Shown: piece by piece, positions 1,865 to 21,084 of the stretch | How positions within the stretch are numbered: position 1 is the stretch's first letter | How the letters are laid out: each line of letters starts with the position of its first letter | Assembly (NCBI GenBank): GCA_963674735.2 | Contig: CAXXQS010000001.1 | Location: forward strand, 1,568,001 to 1,632,000 | Direction: 5' to 3' | Length of the DNA: 64,000 bases | Source of the DNA: Myxococcota bacterium | GTDB lineage: Bacteria > Myxococcota_A > SURF-8 | Position numbers and translations under genes: made by a program | The notes under the pieces: generated by a model | What the model saw: only the letters and a program-made list of their open reading frames with translations | Database searches by the model: none | Told to the model about the DNA's origin: nothing

Positions 1865-3514
1865 TTACTGAGGACCATTTTGCGGGACGCAGATGCCCTG
1901 CTGATCGCAAACGAGAACCTGATAGGGATTATCCGGGCAATCGCTATCCTGATTACAGGATGGAATGCAATATTTCCCTCCTTCCGGCGACTCACTGCAA
2001 ACACAGCCCAAAGCCGCGTCCGTTGGGCAGGCCTGCGCCGCCTCGCAATCCGATTGAGTGACGCAGGTGACGGGACCATCGGGCACGTCGCCATCAGGCG
2101 CATCGCCATCAGGCTCATCGCCATCGGGCACATCGCCATCAGGCATATCGCCATCAGGCGTGTCACCATCGGGCAAGTCGCCATCAGGCAAGTCGCCATT
2201 CGCGATTTGCAGGTCATCGCGGACGCAGCGAACGAAATTCAGAATGCGAATCGCATCGCCCTGCGGTCCGTTGCCTTGCGCATAATCATCGGGGTTGCCG
2301 GCTTTAGGATCACTGCGCTGCGCGCCCGCACCATGGACATCCATCCATTGCTCGTTCATGTAGCCCATCGCCCGACCAAACGCCACATAGGCCGCGTTGC
2401 CTCCCTCGCGTCCATCGACCGAGTTCGCATGCGTCGTCGCACTCCAGTAACACCCGAAATCGGCCTGTCCGGCTTCGTTGGTGATACCGGTGGTTTCGAA
2501 CAGCGGATCGATGGCAGCCGAATTCGTGGTACCGGGGCTGCGGCTGTAATCGACGAGGCTCTGCAACTCTTTCGCGTTGGGCAGTCGCCAATCGCTATTA
2601 TCGGCCAGCTCCAGCCCCTCGCAATAGATCAGTGCTTCCTCCCAATTCATGGTGGAAACGCTGTCCGCCTGCTGCCACATCAAGCCGGTCGCCGCGTCGC
2701 GGATCGTCCCATCGCCGTTGTCGCTGAAGTCGTTTTCGCCATACACCGCCTTGCCACGCACGAAAATCGCGTAGTACCCGCCGACCTGGCGAAACATGGT
2801 CGGATAACATTTAATTCGTCCATCCGCGAAATTGACCCCAAAGAAGCATTCCTCGCCGCCCATGACGGAATCGACGTAGATGCTGCTGGTCACCCACTGC
2901 GAATCGATCACCCGCTCGCCGTTGGCTGTATCCCCGTAGGAAAATGCGAAGGTTTCATCGTCGATAAACGGCGTCATATTGCCGCTTTCTTCGGCCATCG
3001 GATCGACATCGCGCCCCGAAAACAGAATCAGCGAGTAGAGTTCTTTAATGGTCGGCACGCGCCAATCGTCGTATCCGGCCAGGTTGAATTCTTCCACCGC
3101 CGCAATCGCATCGGCATACTGCATTTTGTCGCCCGGATCCTGCTGCCACATCAAGCCGGTCACGCGATCCGAAACCGTGCCGTCGCCGTTGTCTTGATAG
3201 CGCGGCGCAAAACCGGCATATTGGGCATCCTGCCCGAAAAAGGACTCGCCTTGCGCGGCGCAAACCATGGTAGAAGTAGTATTGAAGCATTTGCTTTGAC
3301 CCGTATCCACAACAGCGTAATCCAATTCCTCATAAAGCGCATCATCACCATCGGCCTCGTCCCCATCGGTCTCGTCCCCATCGGCGTTATCGCCATCCGG
3401 CGCATCCCCGTCGCTCGAATCGTCGTCGCGATCGTTGCACGCGACAAAAACAACGAACATTGCCATCAACAGTACAATCATCATCCAGTCAATTTTCCGT
3501 TCGGCACCTAGCAT
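1865..3514 (-). CDS. DUF1566 (Lcl C-terminal-like) domain lipoprotein with DGD repeats
   Basis: Lipobox-like VACND. Two copies of DNGDGT(V/I).D..TGLMWQQ...WR(V/L)P..KEL.SL. DGDxx repeats flank the core, and there is a Cys-rich C-terminal tail. Confidence 0.85.
   Translation of the reverse strand: MLGAERKIDWMMIVLLMAMFVVFVACNDRDDDSSDGDAPDGDNADGDETDGDEADGDDALYEELDYAVVDTGQSKCFNTTSTMVCAAQGESFFGQDAQYAGFAPRYQDNGDGTVSDRVTGLMWQQDPGDKMQYADAIAAVEEFNLAGYDDWRVPTIKELYSLILFSGRDVDPMAEESGNMTPFIDDETFAFSYGDTANGERVIDSQWVTSSIYVDSVMGGEECFFGVNFADGRIKCYPTMFRQVGGYYAIFVRGKAVYGENDFSDNGDGTIRDAATGLMWQQADSVSTMNWEEALIYCEGLELADNSDWRLPNAKELQSLVDYSRSPGTTNSAAIDPLFETTGITNEAGQADFGCYWSATTHANSVDGREGGNAAYVAFGRAMGYMNEQWMDVHGAGAQRSDPKAGNPDDYAQGNGPQGDAIRILNFVRCVRDDLQIANGDLPDGDLPDGDTPDGDMPDGDVPDGDEPDGDAPDGDVPDGPVTCVTQSDCEAAQACPTDAALGCVCSESPEGGKYCIPSCNQDSDCPDNPYQVLVCDQQGICVPQNGPQ
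2075..2200 (-). repeat. 15-bp coding tandem repeat (DGDxP, about 8 copies)
   Basis: Repeated TCGCCATC(A/G)GGC units encode NGDLP-DGDLP-DGDTP-DGDMP-DGDVP-DGDEP-DGDAP-DGDVP. Confidence 0.9.
3342..3413 (-). repeat. DGDxx coding repeat (about 5 copies)
   Basis: Encodes DGDAP-DGDNA-DGDET-DGDEA-DGDD just after the lipobox. Confidence 0.85.
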
Positions 3515-6577: not shown

Positions 6578-8929
6578 ATGAGCCCAGGTCGCTGCATCGT
6601 GGTTTTTACATGGAGCCTTCTGGTTTTTCTTTTGTTCACGCAAGAGAAAGCTTATGCGGAAGCTGTCATTCGTTTATCGGATACCGATACGAACGGGTTA
6701 CTTGTTTCCGATGTGGATTTCCTGCTCGATCCGGACAAAGCGCTCACCATCGCCGACGTCGTAACCTCGGCAGGTTCGTCTCGTTTTATTTCAACGGCTC
6801 CGATGTCGCCGAATCTCGGATTTCAACGCGGCAACACCTGGCTGCGCATGACGTTTGAAAATCAGTCGAAACAAAAGAAATGGGTATTTGGGTTGTCCAA
6901 CCCAAGTCTTGAACAGGTGGACTTTTTTACCCCCACACCCGACGGCCACTATCACGGCTTGATGAGCGGACTGTCTGTGCCGCTATCAAAGCGCCCGATG
7001 CACACGCGCGACCATTCCTTCCCTCTCACTCTCGACACCGGCGAGATAAAAACCGTTTACCTGCGCGTCTCGTCCTCCACCAGCCTGATCCTCGCGCCCT
7101 GGATCATGCCGCGCCCGTACTTCCGCGATTGGGAAAAAGGCATCATCGCCCTGCTGGCCATCATCGCGGGACTTCTCCTGGCGGTTGCGCTTTCCAATTT
7201 CATCTGGCTTTTGACTTTTCGGCAAGCGGGTTACATCCTGTTTGTGCTGTTCGATCTTTCGGTGGGCTTTTTCCTTGCCGCGAATTTCGGTTTGGCTCAT
7301 CTCTATCTTTGGCCGGAGTACCCGGCTCTCGCCATCGCGTCCTCTCCCTTTTTCGCTTCGATGGCTCTGTTAAGCGGAACCCTTTTCGCGCGTTCCTACA
7401 TCGACACCAAATCGCTTTTCCCCCGACTCGACCGTCTGTTTCCTCCTCTGGCCGCCCTATCCGGTTTTCTTGTTTTCTGGTCTCTCTTCCATCCGCCTAG
7501 CGCCAATATCCTTATCTCCGTTATCTCTCTTCTCATTATGACCGCCTCCATGGTTGGGTGCTATTTGCGCTTGCGCATGCCTCACGAAAAACGACGGATA
7601 TTTTGGGCCCTGATGTTGATCGGACTTTTGGGCGGACTATTGTTTGTCCTGATGACCTTCGGCCTGATTCCACTTAGTCCCATCACCCTAACCGTCGGAC
7701 CGCTCGGGTTTCTCCTGGCCACCCTCTTTCTGGTTTTTACCGTCGGCCATCGCTACATTTTCTATCAACGTCACTACTCGCAACTTTTCAACAGCGCCAA
7801 CGAAGCGATTTTCCTGCTCGACAGCCAGCTAGACGAGATTCTGGACGCAAACAAACAAGCCACCGATATGCTGGGTTATTCACATACGCAAATAATGCAA
7901 ACGGGCTTTCCGGATCTCGTCGATCAAGAAGACCCGAGCTGGCAGCGCTTCTACAAGCGGCGTCTGACAAATTCCTTTTGCGACGCTCAGCCGATCTTCC
8001 ATTCCTTCATATTCAAGACCCGAAAGGGTGCTTCATTTTTGGGTGAAGTCACGCTTCGCCGTCTCGGCAAGGATAGCCAATCGCCTCATCTGGTTGCCGT
8101 GCGGGACGTCACCGCCATGCGGGAGGCCGAAGACCGTCTGCGCCAGCAGCAGAAACTCGAATCCATCGGCACCCTGGCCAGCGGCGTCGCACACGAAATC
8201 AACAATCCGATCAACATCATCATGAATTACGGGCAACTCATTCTGGATACAAGCGAACCTAACTCCAACTCTTACGAATACGCTAATGAAGTGGTGAATG
8301 AATGCCACCGGGTGGCCAATATCGTGAAAAATCTACTGGCCTTTTCGAAGCCGGAGTATGAGGGCAGCCTGTCTCTGATCGATATGCGCGAGGTGGTGAC
8401 CAACACGCTGACCTTGATGCAGCGGTTGCTTAAAAAGGATCAGATCCTGATCAAGATCGAATGGCCCGCCGACCTGCCACGTGTGATGGGAAACGTTCAG
8501 CAGCTCAAGCAGGTGATCATGAATCTGCTCACCAATTCCCGCGATAGTCTCAATAGCCGTTACGCGAAATACGATCCCAACAAGCAGATCCGCATCTCAG
8601 CCGGTCTGCTCGACACCCAAGAACGGCCCGTTCTCAGATTGACGATCGAAGATTTCGGAATCGGCATCCCTCAACAGATGCAAAAGCGCGTTTTCGATCC
8701 GTTCTTTTCGACGAAAACTCCCAATCTGGGTACGGGGCTCGGCCTATCCATCAGCCATGGCATCATCACCGACCACGGAGGCGAGTTGCTGGTCGAAAGC
8801 GTGGCGGACCGATTCACACGATTCCATATTCAACTTCCGATCCCGATCGCCCACGATCAAGTCAGCGCCTTCGCTTCCGTTACGGCGGATGCCGATATGC
8901 AGCCGTCCCCGGCGCACGAAAGCGCCTGA
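6578..8929 (+). CDS. 7TM-DISM sensor, PAS-domain histidine kinase
   Basis: Signal peptide, extracellular DISMED2-like region (NLGF...WLR), about 7 TM helices, PAS, H-box GVAHEINNP, N-box QVIMNLLTN, and G boxes DFGIG / FDPFFSTK / GTGLGL. Confidence 0.9.
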   Translation: MSPGRCIVVFTWSLLVFLLFTQEKAYAEAVIRLSDTDTNGLLVSDVDFLLDPDKALTIADVVTSAGSSRFISTAPMSPNLGFQRGNTWLRMTFENQSKQKKWVFGLSNPSLEQVDFFTPTPDGHYHGLMSGLSVPLSKRPMHTRDHSFPLTLDTGEIKTVYLRVSSSTSLILAPWIMPRPYFRDWEKGIIALLAIIAGLLLAVALSNFIWLLTFRQAGYILFVLFDLSVGFFLAANFGLAHLYLWPEYPALAIASSPFFASMALLSGTLFARSYIDTKSLFPRLDRLFPPLAALSGFLVFWSLFHPPSANILISVISLLIMTASMVGCYLRLRMPHEKRRIFWALMLIGLLGGLLFVLMTFGLIPLSPITLTVGPLGFLLATLFLVFTVGHRYIFYQRHYSQLFNSANEAIFLLDSQLDEILDANKQATDMLGYSHTQIMQTGFPDLVDQEDPSWQRFYKRRLTNSFCDAQPIFHSFIFKTRKGASFLGEVTLRRLGKDSQSPHLVAVRDVTAMREAEDRLRQQQKLESIGTLASGVAHEINNPINIIMNYGQLILDTSEPNSNSYEYANEVVNECHRVANIVKNLLAFSKPEYEGSLSLIDMREVVTNTLTLMQRLLKKDQILIKIEWPADLPRVMGNVQQLKQVIMNLLTNSRDSLNSRYAKYDPNKQIRISAGLLDTQERPVLRLTIEDFGIGIPQQMQKRVFDPFFSTKTPNLGTGLGLSISHGIITDHGGELLVESVADRFTRFHIQLPIPIAHDQVSAFASVTADADMQPSPAHESA

Positions 8930-8937
8930 TTTCATTT

Positions 8938-10266
8938 TTATCGAGAAGATCGGCCGGTAGGAAAGAGCATTTCGCGGCGTCCCAGCGCATTGATCATGCG
9001 TTCCACAATCCCCAGTGTGCCCCGATAACCGTAACTGGGATGCGGCAGCAAGCGGTGCGTATAGATGGAGGCATATCCCCATTCGACGGCGGCGACCCCC
9101 AACCGCAAGGATTCGGACGCGATGGCGCTGTCGCCGAAACACAGATCCACACAACCCGGACCCGTCTGCTTTTCCACCACCCGGCGCAAGTGATCGAGGG
9201 TGGGATCGTGGATCAGCGGGCAGGCATACTCGTTGGCCCAGTCCCACTCGCCATGAATATCTTTCACGTTGCTGTACAGGCCTTCGATGCGAGCACCGAA
9301 GAAACGAAGCAGACCGGCCAGGGCTTCGAGTTCGTGGGGATCGGCCACCAGCATGACCCCGAGATCGACCAGCCAATGGGGCACGATCCATTTGAGCGGC
9401 GCCAGCATCTCGCGTTCACCTTGGCGGATGGCGGCCTGCGCCTGCGCCTCGCGCTTGGTGTGCGCAGCCAGCCGTTTCAGAAACGCGGCGGTCGGATCGG
9501 GACCGATGGGCAGTGGCAAATCGAGACAATCACGATTCAGCCGTCTGGCCAGCACCTTCGCCGCTTTGCGTCCATAAGGCAGCGACACGATCGTTTCGGC
9601 CCTTGCGACCCGCCCCAGTTCGTCCACCGATTCACCGGACGGCCAGACACTCGTCACCTGCAAACCCAGCGACTCGACCAGGGAGCGAAGCTCTGAAACA
9701 TTGGCGCGATCATCCGCTTCGTTGCGGGTGAAAAGCGGTCCGACGATGGCCACACTGTCGGGCTGCGGCTCGCACGTATCCAACGGCAAGCTTTTAGCCA
9801 GGGCCAGCAACGTTTCGCCATAACCGGCCAGCCAATCGCTGTAGAGATCGCGCGCACGCACCTCGATCAGGGGCACCGCCACCTGCTCGGCCAACTCGTC
9901 GAGAATCGCGCCGAGATCTCGTCCGGTAACCGTCACCAGCGACATGGCCGTCGCCAAAACGAGGCGGGTTCCGGGGCTTTCAGCCGCCGCCAGCAAGGTC
10001 TGGCGCAGAACACCTTCCTTCCCGGCCGCCAACTCGCTGAGATTCTGGTCGCTGTGAAAAACACGCCGCCGGTCGCTGTCGATCAGGGTCGACTGCCAAT
10101 CGTGATTGCCCTGCACGCGATCGACTTTGCCCGCCACGCAACTGGGGGCATCGACCACCAGCGCGGCATCGGGAATGGCATTGAGTGCCAGGTATACGCC
10201 GTCGAGATAGGGCTTGGCGATATGCGGAGCAAGATCCGGTTGAGCTGTGGAACGCAAACCCATCAT
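8938..10266 (-). CDS. Divergent nitrogenase component-1 family oxidoreductase subunit (NifK/BchB-like position)
   Basis: GVYLALNAIPDAALVVDAPSC, DWLAGY...L.AL, VAIVG, ANVSELRSLVESLGL.V, LPLPIG...TAAFL and YGYRG patterns of the oxidoreductase-nitrogenase fold. ATGA overlap with the upstream gene. Confidence 0.75.
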   Translation of the reverse strand: MMGLRSTAQPDLAPHIAKPYLDGVYLALNAIPDAALVVDAPSCVAGKVDRVQGNHDWQSTLIDSDRRRVFHSDQNLSELAAGKEGVLRQTLLAAAESPGTRLVLATAMSLVTVTGRDLGAILDELAEQVAVPLIEVRARDLYSDWLAGYGETLLALAKSLPLDTCEPQPDSVAIVGPLFTRNEADDRANVSELRSLVESLGLQVTSVWPSGESVDELGRVARAETIVSLPYGRKAAKVLARRLNRDCLDLPLPIGPDPTAAFLKRLAAHTKREAQAQAAIRQGEREMLAPLKWIVPHWLVDLGVMLVADPHELEALAGLLRFFGARIEGLYSNVKDIHGEWDWANEYACPLIHDPTLDHLRRVVEKQTGPGCVDLCFGDSAIASESLRLGVAAVEWGYASIYTHRLLPHPSYGYRGTLGIVERMINALGRREMLFPTGRSSR

Positions 10267-12407
10267 TTCGCTCCCTGTAAAGCATCCCGCAATCGAGCGG
10301 GGAAATCGTAGCGCGCCAGACGGATAAAGCGCCGCACTGACCGCAACGCGCCTTCAAAGCCTTTCTCGAAATCGCTCAAACCGATTCCGGCGCGACCCGC
10401 ACGCACCAGCCGTTCGTCGTAGGTGGTTTCACTAAACACCGGTCCCGGTGCTCCTGCGGATAACAAACGCTGCAAGTCCTCCGGCGTTTCGAACAACGCC
10501 GTTTCGAAACGTTCATGCGGAATACCCGCATCTTCCAGAATTTCAACCATCCGCCGCTTCAGACGATCCGCCGTAACGGTCAGGTCCGCAGACCGATAAA
10601 TCAGCACGCGGCAACCGATGCCGAACTCATGCAAGAAGGGCAAAGGCGACCAACCGAAGTTTCGTTCGGGTTGCCACAGACGCGAAACCTGTCCCAGATC
10701 GCACACGACATGCAAGGCGGTTCCCGCGGTTTCGGCCCGTAGGGCGTCCCGCCGTCGCTCCCAATCGCTGCGGCGTTCGTCCCAGACCCGTTCCCAGCCT
10801 TGGCTCAGGCCGAATGTTTCCGCCAGTTGCGCACACCAGGCGGCGCTGTTTTCGATACCGAACGGGGCCCCGATTTCGACGACCGGGATACCACTCGGAC
10901 GAAAAACCCCGTCATACAAGCGTCTCCAGCCTTTGTAGGAAAGCAGCACCTGTTTCCAGGCGGCACTGTAACCGCGCAGCTGTTTGAGATCCATGCGCGG
11001 CAACAGGTTGGCGCTCACTCGCACCCCCACAACGGCCAGCAGTTCGGCCAGCTCATCCAGATCCTGTCCGGGCGCATAACCGATCAACGCCAACGACGGA
11101 TCCTGCGACGGCGCGAGCGGTGGGCGGTAGGTCATCAGTTCGCTGAATTGCCGCGCAATCGCGTCTTCATGCGCATCGAAAGCGGCCTGAGGATAGGGAT
11201 TGATAAATGCCACCGAGCGTTTTTCGAGAAGGCGTGTTTTGACGGCACGGCTATCCTGCCCCAGCAATTTTGGGATGCAGGTCGGCAAAAAGAAGACCAG
11301 CCGATCCGGTTCGCCGCTTTCCACGCAGCGTTCCAACAGACCCGCCAGCCGCGCCTCGCCGCCGTCGTGAATCACATCCGCATCGCTGAGCTCCGTGGAC
11401 AGTATCCGTTGTTCCCGTCCCGCAGCCAGCCGCCAGGGAGGGCGAATCTGCCACGCCAGACGCCCACGCGCCATGGGACGCATGGCAATGCAGTTGCGGT
11501 CGCTGTGGCTGACGAAATCGATCTTGTCCGTGGCCTGACTGCACGCCGTACTGACGGCATATTCGTATTCATCCTCGGCCATGAACTGCCGCCAGGCGAT
11601 GTCGGGCGAAGCCTCCAGAGCCGACGGCAGCGGCGCATCCCCTTGCTGCAGAAGATCGATCCAGTCCTCGCGTGAGTCTTCCTCCGGCTCGTCAAGCTGC
11701 AACGCCTCGGGATGGACCCGCCGCGAGAGGGCGAAAGCCACCGCGCGTTCCACCTGATGCGCGTATCCGTTGCGCTGCACATCCGTGCGCTCGTCGCGCG
11801 TGCACCGCAAAATCAGCGCCCCGCGTTCGATGAGGTCTTCCTCCGAATCCGCATTTTCACGATCGTTTCGCGTTGCCGACCGATCGCGCAGTTCCAGATC
11901 GATACGCCGCCCTTCCCGCTCGAAGCGTAGATGCAAGGCGGTTCGTTGCGATTCCGCAAGCGTCACGCGCCATTCAAACCACCCCGCCTGCCCGGCCGCC
12001 AACCACCCCACAGCCAGGTCGTGAAAGCAAGCGGACGCCGTAAAAGAAGGGGCGTCCGGTCCCGGCGGCGCATAGTCGGCAAACGTTTCGCTCGCCACGG
12101 CCCGCGCCAGCGTTTGCACAAGCGCTTTGCCTACGGCATGCTCCAGCCCTTTGCAGGTCAATTCGACGATGGCGAAATCCGACTCCTCGACCTTGGCCTG
12201 CGTGGAACGACGATTGGTCCATAAATACGCGACGTTTCCTTCTTCGCTCGCAAATTCGAACCGCACCGTACCATCCAACTCGGCCCGCGCCCGTCCCCGC
12301 CATGTTTTTTGTGCGCTCGCAGACAGCCATTTGGCCGCCGCCAGCACCAGGCGTTCCAGCCCCAGATCGATACGCGATCGCGGGTTGGGGGGTAACGCGT
12401 CACTCAT
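10263..12407 (-). CDS. Divergent nitrogenase component-1-like subunit with a N-terminal extension of about 280 aa
   Basis: STELSDADVIHDGGEARL, PTCIPKLLGQD, LALIGY...ELAELL..VGVRV, APFGIE.S..W and GFEGA match NifD/NifE/BchN-type motifs. Likely start is the ATG at 12407, overlapping the NifH-like stop; the ORF track extends to 12458. Confidence 0.65.
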   Translation of the reverse strand: MSDALPPNPRSRIDLGLERLVLAAAKWLSASAQKTWRGRARAELDGTVRFEFASEEGNVAYLWTNRRSTQAKVEESDFAIVELTCKGLEHAVGKALVQTLARAVASETFADYAPPGPDAPSFTASACFHDLAVGWLAAGQAGWFEWRVTLAESQRTALHLRFEREGRRIDLELRDRSATRNDRENADSEEDLIERGALILRCTRDERTDVQRNGYAHQVERAVAFALSRRVHPEALQLDEPEEDSREDWIDLLQQGDAPLPSALEASPDIAWRQFMAEDEYEYAVSTACSQATDKIDFVSHSDRNCIAMRPMARGRLAWQIRPPWRLAAGREQRILSTELSDADVIHDGGEARLAGLLERCVESGEPDRLVFFLPTCIPKLLGQDSRAVKTRLLEKRSVAFINPYPQAAFDAHEDAIARQFSELMTYRPPLAPSQDPSLALIGYAPGQDLDELAELLAVVGVRVSANLLPRMDLKQLRGYSAAWKQVLLSYKGWRRLYDGVFRPSGIPVVEIGAPFGIENSAAWCAQLAETFGLSQGWERVWDERRSDWERRRDALRAETAGTALHVVCDLGQVSRLWQPERNFGWSPLPFLHEFGIGCRVLIYRSADLTVTADRLKRRMVEILEDAGIPHERFETALFETPEDLQRLLSAGAPGPVFSETTYDERLVRAGRAGIGLSDFEKGFEGALRSVRRFIRLARYDFPARLRDALQGAK

Positions 12408-13233
12408 CTTGAGCCCCTGTATCGGGGGTACGCGCAAAGGCGTAAAATTCTTTCTCATCCAGAGGAGTGGGAATCACGGCATCGACAAGCGGCAGACCCT
12501 CCACCCGCTCGGCAATCGCGCTCAAGATGCCTGCCACCTCGCTATCGGGAGCCTGTTCGACCACCGTTCGTCCGGCCAGCTCGGCTTTGCGAATCCGCGC
12601 ATCGCGCGGCACCACACCGACAATCGGCGCCCCGATCCGACGCGCAAACTCTTCAAGCTTGTCCAGCGGTTCGTTATTGTCGCGTCGGTTGACCAGCAGC
12701 CCGCCCAGGCGTGAACCGTTACGGGCCAGCCGCACGATCATGCGCGCCACGTTGTTGGCGGCGTAAAGCGACATCATCTCTTCACTGGTCACGATAAACA
12801 CCAATTCGGCGAAACCCTGACGCAGGGGGCCAGCGAAACCGCCGCACACCACATCGCCCAAGACATCGAAAACGGTCAGATCGTAGCCACGCTCCATGAC
12901 CTCGAAGTCGTCGAAGATATCCAGCATCCGGGCAATGCCGCGTCCGCCGCAGCCGATCCCCGGCTCCGGTCCGCCCGCTTCCACCAGGTCGATGCCGTTA
13001 CGCCCGGTGACCAGAATCTCTTCCAGCTTCGACACGCGGTCGTCGTTGCGCAGCAGAACTTCGACCACCGGAACGGGCGGATGACCATCGGCCAGCGTGT
13101 AGGTGGAGTCATGTTTGGGGTCGCACCCGACATGCAACACCCGTCGTCCCTTTAGGGCCGCACACATGCTCACCGCCGCCGCCAGGGTCGATTTGCCGAT
13201 TCCGCCTTTTCCATAGAGGGCGATTCGTTTCAT
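12400..13233 (-). CDS. nifH: NifH/BchL/CfbC-family Fe protein (nitrogenase reductase-like ATPase), probably not for N2 fixation
   Basis: IALYGKGGIGKST, GCDPKHDST, EAGGPEPGIGCGGRG, DVLGDVVCGGFA and E.MSLYAANN; both cluster-ligating Cys are kept. Start ATG at 13233 with GGAG upstream. Confidence 0.92.
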   Translation of the reverse strand: MKRIALYGKGGIGKSTLAAAVSMCAALKGRRVLHVGCDPKHDSTYTLADGHPPVPVVEVLLRNDDRVSKLEEILVTGRNGIDLVEAGGPEPGIGCGGRGIARMLDIFDDFEVMERGYDLTVFDVLGDVVCGGFAGPLRQGFAELVFIVTSEEMMSLYAANNVARMIVRLARNGSRLGGLLVNRRDNNEPLDKLEEFARRIGAPIVGVVPRDARIRKAELAGRTVVEQAPDSEVAGILSAIAERVEGLPLVDAVIPTPLDEKEFYAFARTPDTGAQDE

Positions 13234-13275
13234 GCCGCACTCAGTCTCCGTTGAAGGTCCGAAAAATGCTACCGC

Positions 13276-13304
13276 ATTATAGCCGAAGCGCCGGTCATAG
13301 CGAA
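13276..13304 (-). promoter_or_regulatory. Putative sigma70-type promoter of the nitrogenase-like operon
   Basis: Perfect TATAAT on the minus strand (13276-13281), with a weak -35 (TTCGCT) 17 bp upstream. Confidence 0.4.
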
Positions 13305-13461
13305 AGGCATTTGACCTGTCGTTCATCATTTCGCCTTGCCGGACAGAAACTCAGCACAATTGATTTCCTTGCTAGTCCCGTGATTTTCTGACATGATTAA
13401 AAAATGGGAGTTTCGATCAGTTATAAGGGAGGCACCCCTCCCCATCCTTCGTGGAAAAACC

Positions 13462-13506
13462 GCCCTTTTTCACAATGGGCGAGGTTGCGGTCAAGCCCTT
13501 TTTCAC
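13462..13506. promoter_or_regulatory. 12-bp direct repeat, candidate regulator site
   Basis: GCCCTTTTTCAC occurs at 13462-13473 and 13495-13506 (33-bp period) in the divergent intergenic region. Confidence 0.4.
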
Positions 13507-13598
13507 CCGGTGACTTCTACGACGGCCGAGAGGTGGGTTGACAAGTGCCGATGATTCTTTGTTTTCATCGGTCGAAGTTTTTAGAATGGGGTGGTGTC

Positions 13599-16541
13599 AT
13601 GGCACGAAATCAAACTCCGATCAAAGATGAACTCGCCGTCTTAAAACAGATTTGCGATGTTTCGCCGTGTTCGATCATGATCTTTCAAGATGAACGATAT
13701 ATTTTTGCCAACCCGACGGGAGCCCAAAGGCTTGGTTACGCATCCCCTGAAGAGATTGTCGGACTTAGCATCTGGGACACAATCCATCCATCCCAACACA
13801 AACTCATACGCGAACGCAAACAGATTCTGGATCGCGGTCAACGCAATCAGGTTATCCCGCTTTCAATCATTCAACCGGACGGCACCAACATCATCGTCGA
13901 ATCGACCTCCGTCGCGATCGTCGTCAACGATCGGCCCGCCGTTCTGGTGACGGGACTCTACTCCAAAGAACGCGAGGTTATCCTTTCGAATCTCAAGCAG
14001 GAAAAAGAACGCTCGCAGCGGTTTCTCGATTTTCTCGGAACGATTTTCATCGTGCTCAATACCGAACTTGAAGTCGAGTTCATCAACCGCGAAGGCCTGA
14101 GAGTGCTCGGTTGTAATCGGCAGGAAACAATCGGAAAGGTGTGGAATACGTTAGCCATACCCGCCGATCACCAAGAAATGATGCACGCGCGCTTGACAGA
14201 GATTCTCCCGCAACAGAAGCTTGAATTCCAATCTCCGATCGTCACTTGCTCGGGAGAAATCAGGCACGTTAGCTGGCATGCCACCTATCTCGACGCAAAT
14301 ACCGAGCATGCTGCCGCGATCCTTCTTAGCGGCGACGATATCACCGACAAGCTCATTACGGAGAATGCGCTACGCCAAAAAACTCAGTTACTCGACCGCA
14401 TGCTGGATGGCATGCCGGACATGGTTTCCATTCACGATGCCGATTACAACATTCTGTACAGCAACTGGAAAGGCTATGCCGATATTCCCAAAGAGAGCCG
14501 CCATCTCGGCAAGCCATGCCACAGCACCTATCGCGGTTTTCCCGAGCCATGCCCGGATTGTCAGGCCAAACTCGTATTCGAAACCAAAACCCCCATACAG
14601 CGTCAAGTACATCTACCCAACGAAAAATGGGTGGAGATTCGCGCGATCCCCATTTTGGATTCGGACAACAATGTCGAACTTGTCGTCGAAATGGTTCGGG
14701 ACATCAGTCAAATCAAAGAAGCCGAACAAGCTCTGTATTTCAGCGAGGAAAAATATCGGAATCTCATCAACACCACGAACACAGGCTTCGTCACGATTTC
14801 CGGGGCCGAAGGACGCGTGCTGGAAGCCAATCAGGTATTCGTCAAAATGACCGGGCATCAAAGCATCGCCGAAATCCTCGGCCGTTCGGTACTCGAGTTT
14901 ACGGCACCCTACGATATCGAACGCAGCCGACAGAAAATCCAGAAATGCTTGAACAGCGGACATATTTACAGCCTGACGGTCGACACATGCTCCCCGGACG
15001 GTCGAATCCTCCCAATCGAGATCAACGCGGGGACGCTGGAAACCTCCAACGGAGTGGTCATTCAGGCCATTATCCACGATATCTCCGAACGAAAAGACTT
15101 GGAAAAAGAACGAAAACGCCTGTTCAATCTCCCCATGGACCTGTTATGTATCACCAACATGAAAGGACATTTCAAGACAATCAATCCGGCCTGGGCGACG
15201 ACGACCGGCTGGTATGAAAACGAACTTATCGGGGCCTCGCTTTTCGACTTTATTCATCCCGATGACATAAAAGATGCAATCGATTCGACCCGCGTGTTCA
15301 AAGAAGGCAAAGCCGTCAGGCAGATGATACTTCGCTTCCGAACCAAAGCGGGCTCGTATATATGGCTTTCCTGGAATGCCGACCCAATACCGTCCGAAGA
15401 TTCCGTTTTTGCCATTGCCCGTGACGTGAGCAAGCAAATCGAAATGGAAGAATCCTTACGAAGTAGCGAAGCGAAGATGAAAAGCATCTTTCGCGCAGCG
15501 CCGATCGGAATCGGCGTCGTTATAAAACGCGTTTTCGTACAAATCAACGAACGATTCTGCGAAATGACCGGTTACTCGGAAAACGAGTTATTGGGTAAAA
15601 GCACTCGCATGGTTTACCGGGATGAGGAGGAATTCCTACGTGTCGGACGGGAAAATCGTCGACAACACCTCATCCAGAATACGGGATCCATCGAAACCCA
15701 ATGGGTTACCAAAACCGGTGACACCATCGATATTTTGTTGAATTCCACCCGTATCGACCCAGCCGATTTTGACAAAGGGATCACGTTTACGGCGCTTGAT
15801 ATCACACAAAAACGCCTTGAAGAAGCGGGCTTACGCCATCAGCAGAAACTCGAAGCGATCGGCACCTTGGCCGGTGGTGTCGCGCATGAAATCAACAATC
15901 CGATCAACATCATCCTGAATTACGGCAACCTGATTCATCTCGACGCCCCGCCGGACAGTCAGATTTCCCAAGATGCCATGGAAATCGTCAACGAAAGCCG
16001 CCGTATCGCCGGTATCGTCAAGAACCTGCTGGCCTTTTCGCGTCAGGACCAGGAAACCCAGTCGTCCGCCTCGATGACGACCATCATCCACGACACCCTG
16101 TCCCTGACGCACAAAATATTGGAAAAGGACCAAATCACCATCGAAACCGATGTTGCCGACGACCTGCCGGTATTCGATTGTCGCCCACAGCAACTGATGC
16201 AGGTGCTGATGAACCTCATCACCAACGCCCGAGATGCGCTAAACGACAAATATCACGCATTTTCACCCGAGAAACGCATCCTGATTTCAGCCACGTTGAT
16301 CGAGCAGGAAGGCAAGAAACAGATCCGCACCACGGTCGAGGATCGCGGCGACGGTATCCCCGACTCGATTCTTGCACGCATCTTCGATCCGTTTTTCACC
16401 AGCAAACAAAAAGATAAAGGAACGGGGCTCGGGCTTTCGGTCAGCCATGGAATCATTAAAGACCACGGCGGACGCCTGCACGTCGAGTCGAAAGTCGACC
16501 ATTACACTCGTTTTCATTTCGATCTGCCGCTTGAAGGATAG
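13599..16541 (+). CDS. Cytoplasmic multi-PAS (about 6 domains) histidine kinase
   Basis: Tandem PAS/PAC repeats, one with a C-x8-C-x2-C motif (PCHSTYRGFPEPCPDC). H-box GVAHEINNP and HATPase boxes are present; no TM segment or receiver domain. Confidence 0.92.
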   Translation: MARNQTPIKDELAVLKQICDVSPCSIMIFQDERYIFANPTGAQRLGYASPEEIVGLSIWDTIHPSQHKLIRERKQILDRGQRNQVIPLSIIQPDGTNIIVESTSVAIVVNDRPAVLVTGLYSKEREVILSNLKQEKERSQRFLDFLGTIFIVLNTELEVEFINREGLRVLGCNRQETIGKVWNTLAIPADHQEMMHARLTEILPQQKLEFQSPIVTCSGEIRHVSWHATYLDANTEHAAAILLSGDDITDKLITENALRQKTQLLDRMLDGMPDMVSIHDADYNILYSNWKGYADIPKESRHLGKPCHSTYRGFPEPCPDCQAKLVFETKTPIQRQVHLPNEKWVEIRAIPILDSDNNVELVVEMVRDISQIKEAEQALYFSEEKYRNLINTTNTGFVTISGAEGRVLEANQVFVKMTGHQSIAEILGRSVLEFTAPYDIERSRQKIQKCLNSGHIYSLTVDTCSPDGRILPIEINAGTLETSNGVVIQAIIHDISERKDLEKERKRLFNLPMDLLCITNMKGHFKTINPAWATTTGWYENELIGASLFDFIHPDDIKDAIDSTRVFKEGKAVRQMILRFRTKAGSYIWLSWNADPIPSEDSVFAIARDVSKQIEMEESLRSSEAKMKSIFRAAPIGIGVVIKRVFVQINERFCEMTGYSENELLGKSTRMVYRDEEEFLRVGRENRRQHLIQNTGSIETQWVTKTGDTIDILLNSTRIDPADFDKGITFTALDITQKRLEEAGLRHQQKLEAIGTLAGGVAHEINNPINIILNYGNLIHLDAPPDSQISQDAMEIVNESRRIAGIVKNLLAFSRQDQETQSSASMTTIIHDTLSLTHKILEKDQITIETDVADDLPVFDCRPQQLMQVLMNLITNARDALNDKYHAFSPEKRILISATLIEQEGKKQIRTTVEDRGDGIPDSILARIFDPFFTSKQKDKGTGLGLSVSHGIIKDHGGRLHVESKVDHYTRFHFDLPLEG

Positions 16542-16559: not shown

Positions 16560-17738
16560 TCAGCTCGGCAGGCGGATGCTCAGATCGCTGATCGGATAAC
16601 TGACGCACGGATGGATGTACCCGTTCAAGCGATCCGACTCGCGCACGCCGGTTTGCGGCGGCATAAATACCCGCCCGCTCAGCAATTTGGAACGGCAATA
16701 GCTGCATTCGCCCGATCGACAAAGCGCCGGAATCTGTCGACCCTGCCGCTCCAGCGCGTTTATCAGCGGCTCGCCCGCCAGAACGTCCATCGAACCGCCC
16801 CCTTCGATCTGCAAAGTAAAGCGCGAATCCGCCTTCACTTGCGCAGGCCATCCGGGCGTTTGCGTAATGTCTGCGGGCGGTCCGTAGGCTTCGCGGCGAA
16901 TGCGATGTTCCTCCACGTCCAGTTTCTGCAGTTCCGGAAGCACGAAATCATACAAGGCGTTCGGACCGCAGATAAATAGGGTTTTCCCCTTCAGCGGCCC
17001 GACATGCTTGCCGATGATGTGTTCAGTGATGAAACCGCGCACGCCACGGTAGTTTTCCTCGGGTTCGGATAACACCAGCGCGTAATTGAACTGCGGATTC
17101 TTGCGTGCGAGCCGATCGATAGCGGAACGAAAGATGGTTTCTTCCAGGTTCCGGCTGCCGTAAATCAAATGAATCTTCCGCGGCCAGCCTTTGTTGGCCT
17201 GATCGCGAAGCATACTCATAAACGGCGTAATCCCGCTGCCACCGGCGATAAAGACCCATTCGCCGCGCTCGATCAAGGGCTCGATATAAAAACGCCCGGC
17301 CGGTCCGCTGCTTTCGAAAGTCTGTCCCACCTGTGCATGGTCGAGCAGATAACCGCTCACGAAACCATCGGGTTTGACGCGCACGGTGAGATCCAAGGTG
17401 TCGTGCTGAGGCGGACTTGAGATGCTATACGGGCGGCTGGTGGCCACTCCGTTGACGCTCAGAAACAAATTGACGTATTGCCCGGCGCGAAAAGGCGGCA
17501 AGGGGCCGTCCACACGAGTGAAACGAAAGGTTTTCGTGCTGGGCGTTTCATCCACCGCTTCGACCAGCTTCAACTGCATTTTCTCAGGGTGCAGGCGCTC
17601 GACGGTTTCGCGCACCTGTTTGCGCCACTTGTCGGAGCTATAGTCCACCCCTTCGCCCTCATCCAGGCGTTTACGCTGCATGAGCTGGCGCGGTATTTCG
17701 AGCAAATCTTTCAACAGGGGAAACAGTTCGGCTGGCAT
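16560..17738 (-). CDS. FAD/NAD(P)H ferredoxin reductase with C-terminal 2Fe-2S domain (Hcr/PaaE-like)
   Basis: FRAGQY, RPYSISS, G.VSGYL, AGGSGITPF, ICGP, and CRSGECSYC...C. Confidence 0.9.
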   Translation of the reverse strand: MPAELFPLLKDLLEIPRQLMQRKRLDEGEGVDYSSDKWRKQVRETVERLHPEKMQLKLVEAVDETPSTKTFRFTRVDGPLPPFRAGQYVNLFLSVNGVATSRPYSISSPPQHDTLDLTVRVKPDGFVSGYLLDHAQVGQTFESSGPAGRFYIEPLIERGEWVFIAGGSGITPFMSMLRDQANKGWPRKIHLIYGSRNLEETIFRSAIDRLARKNPQFNYALVLSEPEENYRGVRGFITEHIIGKHVGPLKGKTLFICGPNALYDFVLPELQKLDVEEHRIRREAYGPPADITQTPGWPAQVKADSRFTLQIEGGGSMDVLAGEPLINALERQGRQIPALCRSGECSYCRSKLLSGRVFMPPQTGVRESDRLNGYIHPCVSYPISDLSIRLPS

Positions 17739-17741
17739 GGC

Positions 17742-19277
17742 TCACCCATCCTGTCGTGTTTTCAATTTGACATTGATCACTTCACCGGCAATCTGACCCG
17801 AGAACATGGCAGGCGAAAATCCGCCCCCCGGCTTGGTCCAGGCCCCGACCTGGTAGAGTCCCGCCAGTGCGCCCCCCGGTCCGGGACGCAGGATCGTATG
17901 GTTGAAGGGCGTGTTATCGAAGCCATAGATGCTGCCGCCCAAGGTGCCCGCGTAGCGCATGTTGGTCACCGGCGTCGCCACCTCCACCACCTCCGCCGCA
18001 TCGCGCAGTCCGGGCAGAACGCGTTCCGCCAGATCCAGCATGCTTTCGGCGATGGTGCTTTTGGTATCCACATAAGCTTCGGGCGCGAGACGCGTCCAGG
18101 GATCGCCATAGACGAGCGCCGTCACGACAACGATGGACGTGCCCGGTGGCGAAACATCGGGAGAAACCGTGTTGTAGGCCGTCATGGCCACTTCGCCCGG
18201 CTCGCCGATCATGCGCATCCGTTCGTAATGCTCATCCAGATCCGCGTCGCGGTTGATGAAGGTTTCATGGTCGGCATAACCGAAGTCGGACAAAGGCTTG
18301 GCCAATCCGAGATACACATTGAAACTGCTCCCGGCCACCTCGGAATGCCGCAGTCCCTTCAGGTAGGTCTGGGGGATATGTTCGAGCCCGATCAACTCCC
18401 GGCAGGTGGTGATGGGATCGGCGTTGGAAACCACCACCTTGGCCCGCACCTCTTCATCCGCCTCCGTTATCACACCGACTGCCCGACCCTTATCGACCAG
18501 AATGCGCTTGGCGCCGTTGCAGAACATCACCTCGCCGCCGTTTTCCTCGATCACCTCGACGAAAGCATTGGACAAGGCCTGTGAACGGCCTTTGATGAAG
18601 GAAGCGCCATAGGTGACATAGGAGGCCAGCGCCACCGCGAAGTAGAAAAACGAAACCTTGGCGGGTCCGATCCCGAAATAGCCCCAGAGTTGCGACAAGA
18701 CCGCTCGGGCGCGTTCGTCACGCACATCCCGGTTGAGCACATCTCCCCAGCGGGAGAAGAAATACCGGGGAGTTGCACGAAACGTGAACGGCAATTTGGC
18801 CAGCGCCACCGCCTTTTTACTGCCGCGTTTATAGGCGAGACCCGACAGAACGTCGATCTCATCGAACACGGTGAAAACCCGCGCCATGAAGCGGCGAATT
18901 CCATCGGCGTCACTCGGGAAGGCACGGCACAGCGTTTCCGTATAGTTCTCGCGTCCCATCGACAGCCGAATGTCGAAATCCGGCAGAACCGAGCGATAAA
19001 GATCGCGGATAGTCAGAAACTCAACCTTTTTGTCGATACCCAAACGCCGGAGATAACGCAGCAACGAGCCGGGATTGTCGTCCGTCCCGATGTCCGACAA
19101 TTCATGCAGCGCCACTTCAAACTCGAAGCGTCCCCGCACAAAACTGGTGGCATACCCTCCCGGAACGTTATGCCGCTCCAACAGGAGGACTTGATGCCCC
19201 TTTTTGGCCAGGAAGGCCGCCGCCGACAAACCACCCAAACCGGCTCCGATCACCACGGCGTCAACTTGTCGAGCCAT
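17742..19277 (-). CDS. Phytoene desaturase / retinol-saturase-family FAD oxidoreductase
   Basis: VIGAGLGGLSAA...LLERHNVPGGY Rossmann motif, ATPVT..RY, GSIYG and GLYQVG...PGGG. Likely start is the ATG at 19277. Confidence 0.85.
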   Translation of the reverse strand: MARQVDAVVIGAGLGGLSAAAFLAKKGHQVLLLERHNVPGGYATSFVRGRFEFEVALHELSDIGTDDNPGSLLRYLRRLGIDKKVEFLTIRDLYRSVLPDFDIRLSMGRENYTETLCRAFPSDADGIRRFMARVFTVFDEIDVLSGLAYKRGSKKAVALAKLPFTFRATPRYFFSRWGDVLNRDVRDERARAVLSQLWGYFGIGPAKVSFFYFAVALASYVTYGASFIKGRSQALSNAFVEVIEENGGEVMFCNGAKRILVDKGRAVGVITEADEEVRAKVVVSNADPITTCRELIGLEHIPQTYLKGLRHSEVAGSSFNVYLGLAKPLSDFGYADHETFINRDADLDEHYERMRMIGEPGEVAMTAYNTVSPDVSPPGTSIVVVTALVYGDPWTRLAPEAYVDTKSTIAESMLDLAERVLPGLRDAAEVVEVATPVTNMRYAGTLGGSIYGFDNTPFNHTILRPGPGGALAGLYQVGAWTKPGGGFSPAMFSGQIAGEVINVKLKTRQDG

Positions 19278-19437
19278 TTCAAACTCCCTCGCGTGTTTTT
19301 CTGATTGGGCAACCAATGTCGATGCACATCGTTTCGCCCCGTTCATGATAACTTGACGGGGAAATTTTGCAACAACTAAAGGCGGGCAAGCCCGCCGGAT
19401 GCGCTCCGACAGGCGGAAGGCAGACTTGCCAAGCCGA

Positions 19438-21084
19438 TCAATCGACGGCGAAGCGATTGATGGCGTTGAAATAACGGGTTAGAAAGTTATCCGTCAACCG
19501 TGTCGGCAGCGCATTGAGCACCTCGTTGACCACCGCCATACGCTCCGGGACATCCTGACCTTCGATGCCCGCCTCGTGCATCAGTTCCCAGAATGCTTCA
19601 TCGTCGATTTCTTCAGGCTCGCGATCGATCACCCGCTCGATCAACCGTTTGGCAACCGCACTCGGAGGGATGCGTTTCGCCGCCTCCACCGCCTCGCGCA
19701 AGTCGCTCAACATGGCGTCGAGTTTCGGGACATTGTTCGCCTGGATGCTGAAATGCACGTTTTCCCGGTGCTCGCGATGACCAAATTGCGGCTGGATGAA
19801 CCATCCGCGCTTCTTCATTTCGTCGGCCAGGTTGAAGACGCTGAGGGTATCGCTGCTTACCGCCACCAGGTTCATATGCGGGTTGCCCATCACGCTCAGG
19901 TCCGGGAAGCGCTCCATGGCCTCGATAAAGTGGCGGGTGCCATCCAGCATTTGCTTGGCCAAACGCAAATAGCCTGCCTGTCCGAGAAAATTCATCGTGG
20001 CCCAGGCCGCCGCTACCGGACCGCCCGAGCGCGAGCTTTGAACGGCCTGATTGACGACGCAATAGCCCGTCCAGCCGGAGCAAGCGAAATACTGGTAATG
20101 TCGCAGCGCCGCATCGCGATGCAGCACAATAGAGGCGCCTTTCGACGCAAATCCGTATTTGTGTATATCCATCGACATCGTGCTGACACCCGGCACGGAG
20201 AAATCGTAGTCGGGCACTTCCACTCCCAGCCGCCGGAAATAGTGCAGTGCAAACCCTCCCACACAGGCATCGACGTGGAACAGCAGATCGTGATCCACCG
20301 CGATTTCTCCGATTTCGCGAATGGGATCCACCACCCCATGTGCGTAGGACGGCGCGGAGGCGACCAGCAGGATGGTGTTGTCGCCGACGGCCTCGCGCAT
20401 GGCCTGCGGATCGGCGCGGAAAGTGGCCTTATCTACCGGGGTCTGGACTATTTTGATGCTCAGATAATCGGCGGCCTTGTAAAACGCGGCATGGGCGGTT
20501 TCGGGCAGAATCATCTCCGGTTCGGTGATGTGAGGACGGTTTTTTCGCGCCCAGTTGCGGGCGGTTTTGACGGCCAGCATGATGCTTTCGGTGCCGCCGC
20601 TGGTGAAGTTGCCCACCACATCCGGTCCGGCGTTGACATGGGCTTTCGACATCTCGACCAGCTCGTTTTCCATGGCCACCACGCTGGGGGTCACGGTGGG
20701 ATCGAGCGGGTTGGACTTCAGAAATTTGAGATAGGCCTTGTGCTGCACCTCGTTGACCGCACGGCCCGCGTCGTAGTAATAGGCAAACACATGGCCCGTA
20801 CCACTCGGCATATCGAAAGACTGGTAGAAGTCGAGCATACCGAAAAGCGTATCGGCCGATAGCCCCTTTTCGGGGACCGTGACCTTTCCGCCCTTGCGAT
20901 AGCGTGACAGCACCATCAGCGGACCCAGCAGACGCGGAGCCAACGGCAGGTGCGCAGCGGCTTTGACCGCCCACGGGGCGCGAGTTTGCAAGGCATCCAT
21001 CATCGCCCCGGCCTTATCGCTCAGGCCTTTGTCTTGAATAACCGACTTAACTGAATTCACGAGATTTTCGGCAACTTGTTTCAT
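19438..21084 (-). CDS. Sphingosine-1-phosphate lyase-like PLP-dependent enzyme (group II decarboxylase fold)
   Basis: NPLDP, TSGGTESIMLAVK, TAHAAF.KAA, SAPSYAHGVVDPI, HVDACVGG, SMDIHKYG (PLP lysine) and SR.GG..AAAWA. Confidence 0.8.
   Translation of the reverse strand: MKQVAENLVNSVKSVIQDKGLSDKAGAMMDALQTRAPWAVKAAAHLPLAPRLLGPLMVLSRYRKGGKVTVPEKGLSADTLFGMLDFYQSFDMPSGTGHVFAYYYDAGRAVNEVQHKAYLKFLKSNPLDPTVTPSVVAMENELVEMSKAHVNAGPDVVGNFTSGGTESIMLAVKTARNWARKNRPHITEPEMILPETAHAAFYKAADYLSIKIVQTPVDKATFRADPQAMREAVGDNTILLVASAPSYAHGVVDPIREIGEIAVDHDLLFHVDACVGGFALHYFRRLGVEVPDYDFSVPGVSTMSMDIHKYGFASKGASIVLHRDAALRHYQYFACSGWTGYCVVNQAVQSSRSGGPVAAAWATMNFLGQAGYLRLAKQMLDGTRHFIEAMERFPDLSVMGNPHMNLVAVSSDTLSVFNLADEMKKRGWFIQPQFGHREHRENVHFSIQANNVPKLDAMLSDLREAVEAAKRIPPSAVAKRLIERVIDREPEEIDDEAFWELMHEAGIEGQDVPERMAVVNEVLNALPTRLTDNFLTRYFNAINRFAVD

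Follow-up and report, generated by a model that had tools for sequence, protein, structure and literature searches.

A three-gene nitrogenase-like operon with an N-terminally extended component-1 subunit in a Myxococcota genome: a candidate reductase of the Group VI type

According to the accessible part of PMC13474568, Group VI is the sole major branch of the nitrogenase superfamily without a characterised member, and our literature search found no such member either. The branch comprises the NflHDK proteins of groundwater Elusimicrobia, Gracilibacteria and aquatic Myxococcales (Meheust et al. 2020; North and Shafaat 2026). As far as the available portions of the published descriptions go, an H protein about 40% identical to NifH, with Cys97 and Cys132 in place, is combined with D and K subunits that are about 22-25% identical to NifD/K, keep at most four of the six P-cluster cysteines and lack the ligands of the iron-molybdenum cofactor (FeMo-co); NifB is missing and several copies occur per genome (10.1101/765248; PMC13474568). 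The same portions list between 0 and 13 neighbouring radical S-adenosylmethionine (SAM) genes, some with B12 domains, and 14 aquatic Myxococcales genomes that carry the system (10.1101/765248). Here we describe a three-gene operon, H-D*-K, on the minus strand of contig CAXXQS010000001.1 of a Myxococcota bacterium, at positions 8938-13233 of a stretch of 64,000 nucleotides (the window, meaning the whole stretch that was analysed). With a probability of roughly 0.65, we consider that it encodes a complete and self-sufficient nitrogenase-like (NFL) two-component reductase of this radical SAM-associated, Group VI-type family in the Myxococcota; judged from its sequence, the enzyme is not one that fixes N2.

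The site holds three co-directional minus-strand open reading frames (ORFs; 12400-13329, 10263-12458 and 8938-10266 in the ORF list with translations), and the H, D* and K genes that they contain are translationally coupled across 8938-13233:

12400..13233, minus strand: H, NifH-type Fe protein, 277 aa (Pfam Fer4_NifH, 266 bits)
11559..12407, minus strand: N-terminal extension of D*, of no known family (ORF residues 18 to about 300)
10263..11558, minus strand: D* core, nitrogenase component-1 domain (Pfam Oxidored_nitro)
8938..10266, minus strand: K, second component-1 subunit, 442 aa (Pfam Oxidored_nitro, 141 bits)

The H frame is 309 aa long (12400-13329) and its NifH-like start is the ATG at 13233, giving 277 aa, with a GGAG 11-14 nt 5' of that ATG. 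The D* frame has 731 aa (10263-12458), or 714 when counted from M18; the true start is likely M18 at 12407, because the ATG there overlaps the H stop codon as ATGAGTGA and because the closest homologues begin at this residue. By coordinates, the ATG of K (442 aa, 8938-10266) overlaps the D* stop codon. Matches to Pfam are far above chance for all three proteins: Fer4_NifH for H (266 bits, E 3.7e-79), Oxidored_nitro for D* (79.7 bits, E 2.6e-22, residues 351-629 only) and for K (141 bits, E 5.5e-41, residues 23-428). Coordinates and Pfam matches thus agree with the initial annotation, which had named three overlapping H-D-K genes at this place. Its description of the two component-1 subunits as barely recognisable holds for single sequences, where the best PDB phmmer E values are 3.8e-4 for D* and 4.3e-5 for K, but not for profiles, where the Pfam matches lie far beyond chance.

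By its sequence, H has the complete set of motifs of an ATP-hydrolysing Fe protein, among them the two cysteines expected to bridge a [4Fe-4S] cluster in the H2 dimer. The P-loop reads GKGGIGKS, switch I CDPKHDS and switch II DVLGDVVCGGFA, and the cluster ligands are Cys95 (codon 12951-12949) and Cys130 (codon 12846-12844); neither the two cysteines nor the P-loop vary among the H proteins from related loci (16/16). H is 40-43% identical to plasmid-borne NifH, 36% to BchL and 34.5% to BchX. The presence of both cluster cysteines and of the Walker and switch motifs, together with 40-43% identity to NifH, is what is described for Group VI, and the well-conserved Fe protein that had been annotated here is confirmed by the 266 bits against Fer4_NifH and by the retention of all Fe-protein motifs.

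The metal sites of D* and K are far more divergent. The only conserved cysteines of D* (49/49 and 27/27 sequences) are Cys323 (codon 11492-11490), in an H-x4-C motif, and Cys394 (codon 11279-11277), in a TC-x5-GxD motif. In the alignment they fall on HxxxxC and xC-x5-GDD of MarD and NifE, at the first and third P-cluster positions, and would be the equivalents of Cys62 and Cys154 of Azotobacter vinelandii. K has a single conserved cysteine, Cys43 (codon 10140-10138; 20/21 sequences), which aligns weakly with the HGPxxC cysteine (first position) of NifE, and its other conserved residues are D56, R68, R181, D185 and H404 (11 and 21 homologues); in the profile alignment no cysteine of K occupies the third P-cluster ligand position, and no other cysteine column reaches 40% in the 49 D* or 21 K sequences. 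Cysteines are therefore kept at three of the six P-cluster positions (D* C323, D* C394 and K C43), and a Cys/His census of D* homologues found no conserved ligand of FeMo-co or of the L-cluster. Since only three of the six P-cluster cysteines are kept and no FeMo-co or L-cluster ligand is present, the pattern fits a simple inter-subunit [4Fe-4S]-type cluster with one non-Cys ligand rather than a P-cluster or a complex cofactor such as FeMo-co. Very divergent D and K subunits, with three of six P-cluster cysteines, no FeMo-co ligands and no NifB, are likewise what the Group VI descriptions lead one to expect.

The H-D-K gene order and the canonical Fe protein could in principle point to a cryptic or minimal nitrogenase, an interpretation that we regard as barely credible. 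In nitrogenase proper, D and K contribute three P-cluster cysteines each (PMC13474568, accessible part), compared with two in D* and one in K, and equivalents of Cys275 and His442 are lacking. The best NifB match in the host genome scores 22.6 bits against a cut-off of 343.65, and the three D*K sets described below are its sole component-1 genes; NifE and NifN are absent. Scores against the models of nitrogenase proper are equally remote: 24 of the required 486 bits for D* on the alpha subunit (N2-ase-Ialpha) and 13 of 854 for K on anfK.

Indeed, H, D* and K all fall far below every NCBIfam equivalog cut-off. H reaches 279/394 bits on nifH and 276/402 on CfbC (score/cut-off), the best value of D* is 32/505 (nifE) and that of K 48/490 (BchB). 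The operon accordingly scores, and is placed, outside Group V, that is, dark-operative protochlorophyllide oxidoreductase (DPOR) and chlorophyllide oxidoreductase (COR), with H at 214/345 (BchL) and 175/331 (BchX), K at 48/490 and D* at 25/490 on the DPOR/COR subunit model; it also differs from CfbCD (Group IV-B) in having two different component-1 genes as against the homomeric CfbD. In a quick maximum-likelihood IQ-TREE tree of 64 rows (27 D*, 21 K, 5 other Myxococcota proteins and 11 references from annotated plasmids, namely NifD/K/E/N of Mesorhizobium, NifD/K/E of Clostridium, BchN/B of Novosphingobium and BchY/Z of Roseobacter), all 27 D* cores fall into a single group (SH-aLRT 99), whose sister (98) consists of three D-like proteins of standard size from other Myxococcota, and the 21 K-like proteins are united with two other Myxococcota K proteins in a second group (96). 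Both groups stand apart from the NifD/K/E/N and BchN/B/Y/Z references, BchY and BchN adjoining the K-like clan only at 83 and with a long-branch warning. D* or K rows of L018, L020, L023, L025, L027, L031, L033, L037 (D), L042 and L043 (D) were excluded as fragmentary or fused gene calls or as duplicates of close kin. The expectation that the subunits would lie outside the characterised clades is upheld on all these counts, by the NCBIfam scores, by the tree with its NifD/K/E/N and BchN/B/Y/Z references, and by a cysteine pattern that differs from those published for nitrogenase, DPOR, methylthio-alkane reductase (MAR) and isethionate reductase (ISR); on this evidence from sequence comparison, the operon is not a nitrogenase, a DPOR/COR, a CfbCD, a MAR or an ISR.

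The two last-named systems deserve separate consideration because the operon could encode a C-S bond reductase for sulfur acquisition, as MAR or ISR do. Among PDB entries the best match of the D* profile is MarD (9FMG, 110.7 bits); NifEN scores as high (110.3), ahead of NifD/K (at most 69) and BchB (61), and the K profile gives 113 bits for MarD, 119 for NifEN, 102 for NifD/K and 76 for BchB. When D*K positions are mapped onto ISR by motif alignment and by the A. vinelandii numbering, the cysteines would fall at the first and third positions of D and at the first of K. The ISR pattern, in the portion of the source available, is instead Cys88 of D with Cys70, Cys95 and Cys153 of K, beside an adjacent isrB radical SAM gene (PMC13474568), and no radical SAM gene adjoins our operon. 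In MarD, Cys270 and His429 bind the [Fe8S9C] cluster, for which a NifB-type maturase is needed (PMC12552129, accessible part, which also identifies 9FMG as MarD); ligands of this type are absent from D*, which has no cysteine at the Cys270 position in the profile alignment to 9FMG chain A, and the genome is without NifB. ISR has been reported in Myxococcota (PMC11423573, as far as that source was available) and the standard-size NFL type of the phylum is sister to D* in the tree, but no sulfur-metabolism gene is adjacent, and taken together we find a role in sulfur acquisition improbable. The standard-size proteins form a second NFL type in their own right (L019, L029 and L030, from genomes G023, G033 and G017), in which D and K measure about 440-560 aa and the N-terminal domain is lacking; in the tree they are sister to D* on the D side and fall inside the K-like group on the other, and they may correspond to the ISR-like type reported for the phylum.

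What sets D* apart is a domain of about 300 residues in front of the nitrogenase-type core, and this domain is the hallmark of the family. No Pfam family was found in the N-terminal part of any of the 49 full-length homologues, no PDB entry matches positions 1 to about 266 of the D* profile, and the Atlas gave no usable match for the N-terminal 300 aa; for whole D* it returned only generic 'nitrogenase component 1' clusters, below 0.9. A profile of the domain finds only the three D* genes in the host genome, and a word-index homologue search with D* retrieved only a 99%-identical fragment of 498 aa. A complex prediction of two copies of H with D* residues 1-300 scored 0.01, which is no evidence either way. 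The family itself is large: a profile built from the three D* proteins finds 1460, 667 and 335 representatives (clusters at 50% identity) at E<=1e-3, 1e-10 and 1e-30, respectively, among 1.84 billion proteins. The long N-terminal form occurs in 63 of the 150 best relatives, and a shorter form of 150-250 aa, homologous to the second half of the domain (hhalign 92%, E 6e-7), in about 48.

Gene fusions also occur among these 150 relatives, six of the H-D type and two of the radical SAM-D type; Pfam supports four of the former and both of the latter, our own H profile supports the other two H-D cases, and one of the two radical SAM-D proteins carries a B12-binding domain. In one H-D fusion (P0056) about 15 linker residues separate H from the N-terminal domain. 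A comparable arrangement was observed at L043:9499-12147 (genome G343), where H (residues 3-258) and a D* core (497-880) are encoded as a fusion in a single frame of 882 aa, akin to P0044, P0056, P0099, P0101, P0121 and P0129. Neither the D* N-terminal domain nor H-D or radical SAM-D fusions are mentioned in the literature that we searched, which did not cover the supplements of 10.1101/765248, and the terms 'N-terminal extension' and 'fusion' have no occurrence in PMC13474568.

The host genome (5.26 Mb in 3 contigs) carries three D*K sets that are 21-30% identical to one another, and two H genes. Set 2 has the same H-D*-K organisation (L001:9828-14054, host genome C2), and the third D*K pair (L002:8999-12381, host genome C2) has no H beside it; one H must therefore serve two component-1 pairs if the third pair is active. 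The N-terminal domain of about 300 aa and the two further paralogous sets go beyond what the initial annotation had recorded. In a search of 401 sampled Myxococcota genomes, in which only the two best candidates per genome were scored, D* was found at E<=1e-50 in 46, mostly from a small number of families (host family 5/5, family f19 16/19, family f26 5/5), and the weaker standard-size type in 21 further genomes; a relative of D* is also present in a metagenome-assembled Myxococcota genome of the host's own family. In two f19 genomes (G028 and G083; L020 and L036), two complete H-D*-K operons stand head to head, the D* of one having the long N-terminal form and that of the other the short.

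Radical SAM genes, the other signature of Group VI, are unevenly distributed around D* loci. Thirty-seven loci were fetched and searched in six frames with a hidden Markov model (HMM) based on 50 of the host genome's 70 radical SAM matches. Within the fetched stretches, none of the 14 loci of the host's order has such a gene nearby and 9 of the 23 loci from other Myxococcota families do, with up to 7 per 20 kb, where about 0.27 would be expected from the density in the host genome; the range published for Group VI includes zero. Across loci L038 and L044, Pfam confirms B12-binding and SPASM radical SAM proteins, a PF03706 membrane protein, a methyltransferase and a MatE exporter. A relation to the radical SAM-linked paralog group, as had been suggested, is thus supported by context (the Myxococcota host, the 9 of 23 loci in other families and the 2 radical SAM-D fusions among 150 relatives), and so is the statement that the window operon is separated from radical SAM genes, as are all 14 loci of its order. 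The host genome itself, with its 5.26 Mb, has about 70 radical SAM matches, at least five of which form a run at C1:1874064-1879075, and this unusually high number suggests an anaerobic lifestyle. One group of these genes forms a separate cluster:

Host genome C2:1560431-1569074 (L047:7431-16074): radical SAM cluster, unlinked to any NFL operon

It comprises genes for a 760-aa unknown protein, a radical SAM protein (328 aa), a B12-binding radical SAM protein (472 aa), a DegT aminotransferase, a PF03706 protein and a further radical SAM protein (464 aa). The radical SAM genes next to the G048 NFL operon (locus L038 of genome G048) form a cluster syntenic with it, the two B12-radical SAM proteins being 64% identical. 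In the trees the G048 operon groups with host paralog sets 2 and 3, and the window's set groups with those of G003 and G004, a subclade that shows no radical SAM link. Orthologues of the B12-radical SAM protein (at least 47% identity) occur in 15 other genomes, 11 of which have D*.

Tetrapyrrole ring reduction for a novel cofactor, as proposed by the discoverers of Group VI, is a rival function for such an enzyme. In the accessible part of that work the proposal builds on B12-binding and HemN_C domains near Elusimicrobia loci (10.1101/765248), and relatives of our operon similarly adjoin B12-binding radical SAM genes; in addition, the three-Cys-plus-one pattern resembles that of DPOR, and the NFL enzymes of known function with a simple [4Fe-4S] cluster (DPOR, COR and CfbCD) all reduce tetrapyrroles (PMC13474568, accessible part). 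We nevertheless consider this function doubtful for three reasons: (i), no tetrapyrrole gene was found beside the 14 host-order loci, which are partly Pfam-annotated, nor at L038 or L044, the tetrapyrrole pathways of the genome not having been surveyed; (ii), the proteins of the unlinked cluster fall below every NCBIfam cut-off, and the B12-radical SAM protein of the syntenic cluster reaches 134/578 on HpnJ, 132/450 on BzaD and 127/481 on BchE; (iii), K and D* are no nearer to Bch than to Nif or Mar subunits.

Several genes near D* loci could be read differently, as signs that the enzyme acts on a membrane lipid or envelope precursor by saturation or another reductive change of an isoprenoid, an acyl chain or a glycolipid head group. 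A PF03706 (LPG_synthase_TM) protein is encoded both in the L038 radical SAM cluster, which also holds the MatE exporter, and in the unlinked host cluster, there with the DegT aminotransferase; a PlsB-type glycerol-3-phosphate acyltransferase lies directly upstream of H and co-directional with it at L015, the G003 orthologue of the window operon; an SGNH/AlgX-like gene stands upstream at the G004 locus (L013); and the nearest, sub-threshold NCBIfam names of the B12 enzyme include HpnJ and a B12 radical SAM protein of lipid biosynthesis. Yet each of these envelope items was seen once, none lies beside the window operon and the NCBIfam matches are far below cut-off, so that we judge this possibility unlikely. 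When the neighbours at the first 21 loci were compared all against all by BLAST, histidine kinases and response regulators were the only families to recur.

Histidine kinases are also the immediate neighbours of the window operon:

6578..8929, plus strand: 7TMR-DISM/PAS histidine kinase, convergent, ending 8 bp from the K stop codon (Pfam; context only)
13545..16541, plus strand: multi-PAS histidine kinase, divergent, a possible regulator (Pfam; context only)
13234..13544, no strand: intergenic region between H and the PAS histidine kinase, the presumed promoter site (sequence)

The distance from H to the divergent kinase gene is 215 bp if measured from the top of the H frame (13329) and 311 bp if measured from its start codon (13233). 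A promoter and terminator scan of 8500-14000 returned no promoter-like (sigma-70-like) site, and terminator-like sites at chance level; the window contains no exact sigma-54 consensus. Of the 64 HATPase_c matches in the 5.26 Mb of the host genome, two are the direct neighbours of this operon and a third is found 5 kb from set 2, an adjacency of kinases to D*K operons that is above chance, and we infer that it most simply reflects regulation of the operon. A more radical interpretation is that the proteins form a regulatory or sensing module, redox- or ATP-gated, that is wired to the flanking PAS kinases. Two kinase genes directly bordering a 4.4-kb operon, the kinase and three receiver/HD-type regulators that precede set 2, and the PAS kinase and receiver that follow the D*-K-H operon of L014 co-directionally would be in keeping with it. 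On the other side, kinases are absent from the neighbourhood of most related loci, the adjacency is explained equally well if an oxygen-sensitive enzyme is under transcriptional control, strict conservation is seen both in the catalytic motifs of H and in the cluster cysteines, and we know of no NFL protein that acts as a sensor; we find this interpretation very improbable. The genes upstream of set 2 (L001:2158-8768, host genome C2), on the same strand and just before it, encode a Cache/PAS histidine kinase and then three receiver proteins with HDOD or HD-GYP-type domains.

Farther out, Pfam identifies an FNR-like reductase, an amine oxidase, a decarboxylase dependent on pyridoxal phosphate (PLP) and a TetR protein within about 8 kb; no nif, bch, cfb or radical SAM gene was found among the neighbours within this distance, in agreement with what had been noted from the sequence. 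The nearest listed radical SAM match in the genome is weak (31 bits; window 32532-33041) and about 19 kb away. The window also holds, at 16560-21707 on the minus strand, a co-directional run of genes for TetR, the PLP-dependent decarboxylase, a flavin amine oxidase and the FNR-like FAD/NAD/2Fe-2S reductase, which may form an operon for the catabolism or tailoring of amines or amino acids, and, at 1865-3514 on the minus strand, a gene for a 549-aa protein with two Lcl C-terminal domains (PF07603, 142 bits).

Returning to the reading that we favour, a Group VI-type two-component reductase, we hypothesize that an H2 dimer docks on a D*2K2 (or D*K) core and passes single low-potential electrons, at the expense of ATP, to one inter-subunit [4Fe-4S]-type cluster, which would be held by three cysteines and one non-Cys or variable ligand, like that of DPOR; by conservation, D33, H55, D56 and H404 of K are candidates for this fourth ligand. 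The cluster would then reduce an organic substrate in a D*/K cavity, and the N-terminal domain of D* might help in substrate binding or gating. As its most likely substrate we regard a small molecule or lipid-like metabolite that is unsaturated and hard to reduce. The adjacent B12/SPASM radical SAM enzymes would probably make or tailor it in some relatives; given that the subclade of the window operon is without a radical SAM link, its substrate is probably available without them. One could go further and speculate that the N-terminal domain is a new substrate-recruiting or gating domain that gave the superfamily a new class of substrate, neither N2, nor a tetrapyrrole, nor an organosulfur compound, for example a membrane lipid or envelope precursor, and that the three sets with their two H proteins act on different substrates under the control of the flanking PAS kinases; we hold this extension to be rather unlikely.

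Several points weigh against the favoured reading. The D*K family matches the published description of Group VI, of which it is a putative member by phylogeny: the references of the tree are Nif and Bch proteins, with none from Elusimicrobia (Group VI), CfbD, Mar, Isr or Nfa, and an H tree with four references has a backbone that does not resolve. What is said here of the fold of D* and K, of the cluster site and its fourth ligand, and of the part played by the N-terminal domain is predicted from sequence. The neighbours of the host-order loci are heterogeneous and offer no hint of a substrate, and the sequencing runs that hold this DNA number four, none of them recorded as RNA. Finally, 34 of the 45 other D* genomes are without an orthologue of the B12-radical SAM protein, among them G001, G002, G003 and G005 of the host family, and in the host genome the syntenic cluster is unlinked to NFL genes, so that a radical SAM partnership is not general. 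The idea that this cluster is an obligate partner was rejected, the co-occurrence being partial, with those 34 of 45 genomes lacking the orthologue, and confounded by relatedness.

That the operons of the host's order are free of radical SAM neighbours, and that the syntenic cluster tracks another paralog, suggests instead that the D*K family has diversified in function, and the link to radical SAM enzymes may not be essential to its chemistry. The new elements are the N-terminal domain of D*, the fixed cysteine pattern, the occurrence of fusions among relatives, the presence of three paralogous sets and, in the host's order, the loss of radical SAM linkage. Gene context is the sole basis of the tetrapyrrole role proposed for Group VI. 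The operon described here, minimal in having three genes and no accessory ones and set in a genome that is nearly closed (three contigs), is a clean candidate for heterologous reconstitution, for which the three-Cys pattern and the N-terminal domain offer concrete targets for mutagenesis and structure work.

The comparison with known systems places the operon at varying distances from each. With IsrBHDK (Group IV-F) it has in common a divergent NFL make-up, a predicted simple [4Fe-4S] cluster and an occurrence in Myxococcota; it departs from that system in its cysteine pattern, in lacking an adjacent isrB-type radical SAM gene and in the N-terminal domain of D*. MarHDK (Group IV-C) is the best PDB profile match of D* (9FMG, 110.7 bits), with H-x4-C and C-x5-GDD motifs that align, although NifEN scores equally well against D*; MAR has a P-cluster, an [Fe8S9C] cluster and a NifB-type maturase, whereas D* and K are without the ligands and the genome is without NifB. 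DPOR (BchL/ChlL with BchNB/ChlNB) offers a mechanistic parallel: it too pairs an ATP-driven Fe protein with a heteromeric component 1, whose single inter-subunit [4Fe-4S] cluster is bound by three Cys and a further ligand, a complex cofactor being absent, as is predicted for D*K. The differences are that the three cysteines of DPOR come from N and the aspartate from B, as opposed to two cysteines from D* and one from K, that D* and K score 25-48 bits against cut-offs of 324-512 on its models, and that no bch or chl gene is adjacent. The capping extension of DPOR is C-terminal on BchB; that of D* is N-terminal instead. Group VI stands nearest. The window locus and all 14 fetched loci of its order differ from it in having no radical SAM neighbour, and the D* N-terminal domain, the H-D and radical SAM-D fusions and the fixed three-Cys pattern are absent from the published descriptions searched, as far as these were available. 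Otherwise the likeness extends from the shared want of a characterised member to several copies per genome, radical SAM-flanked relatives with B12-binding domains and a Myxococcota host.

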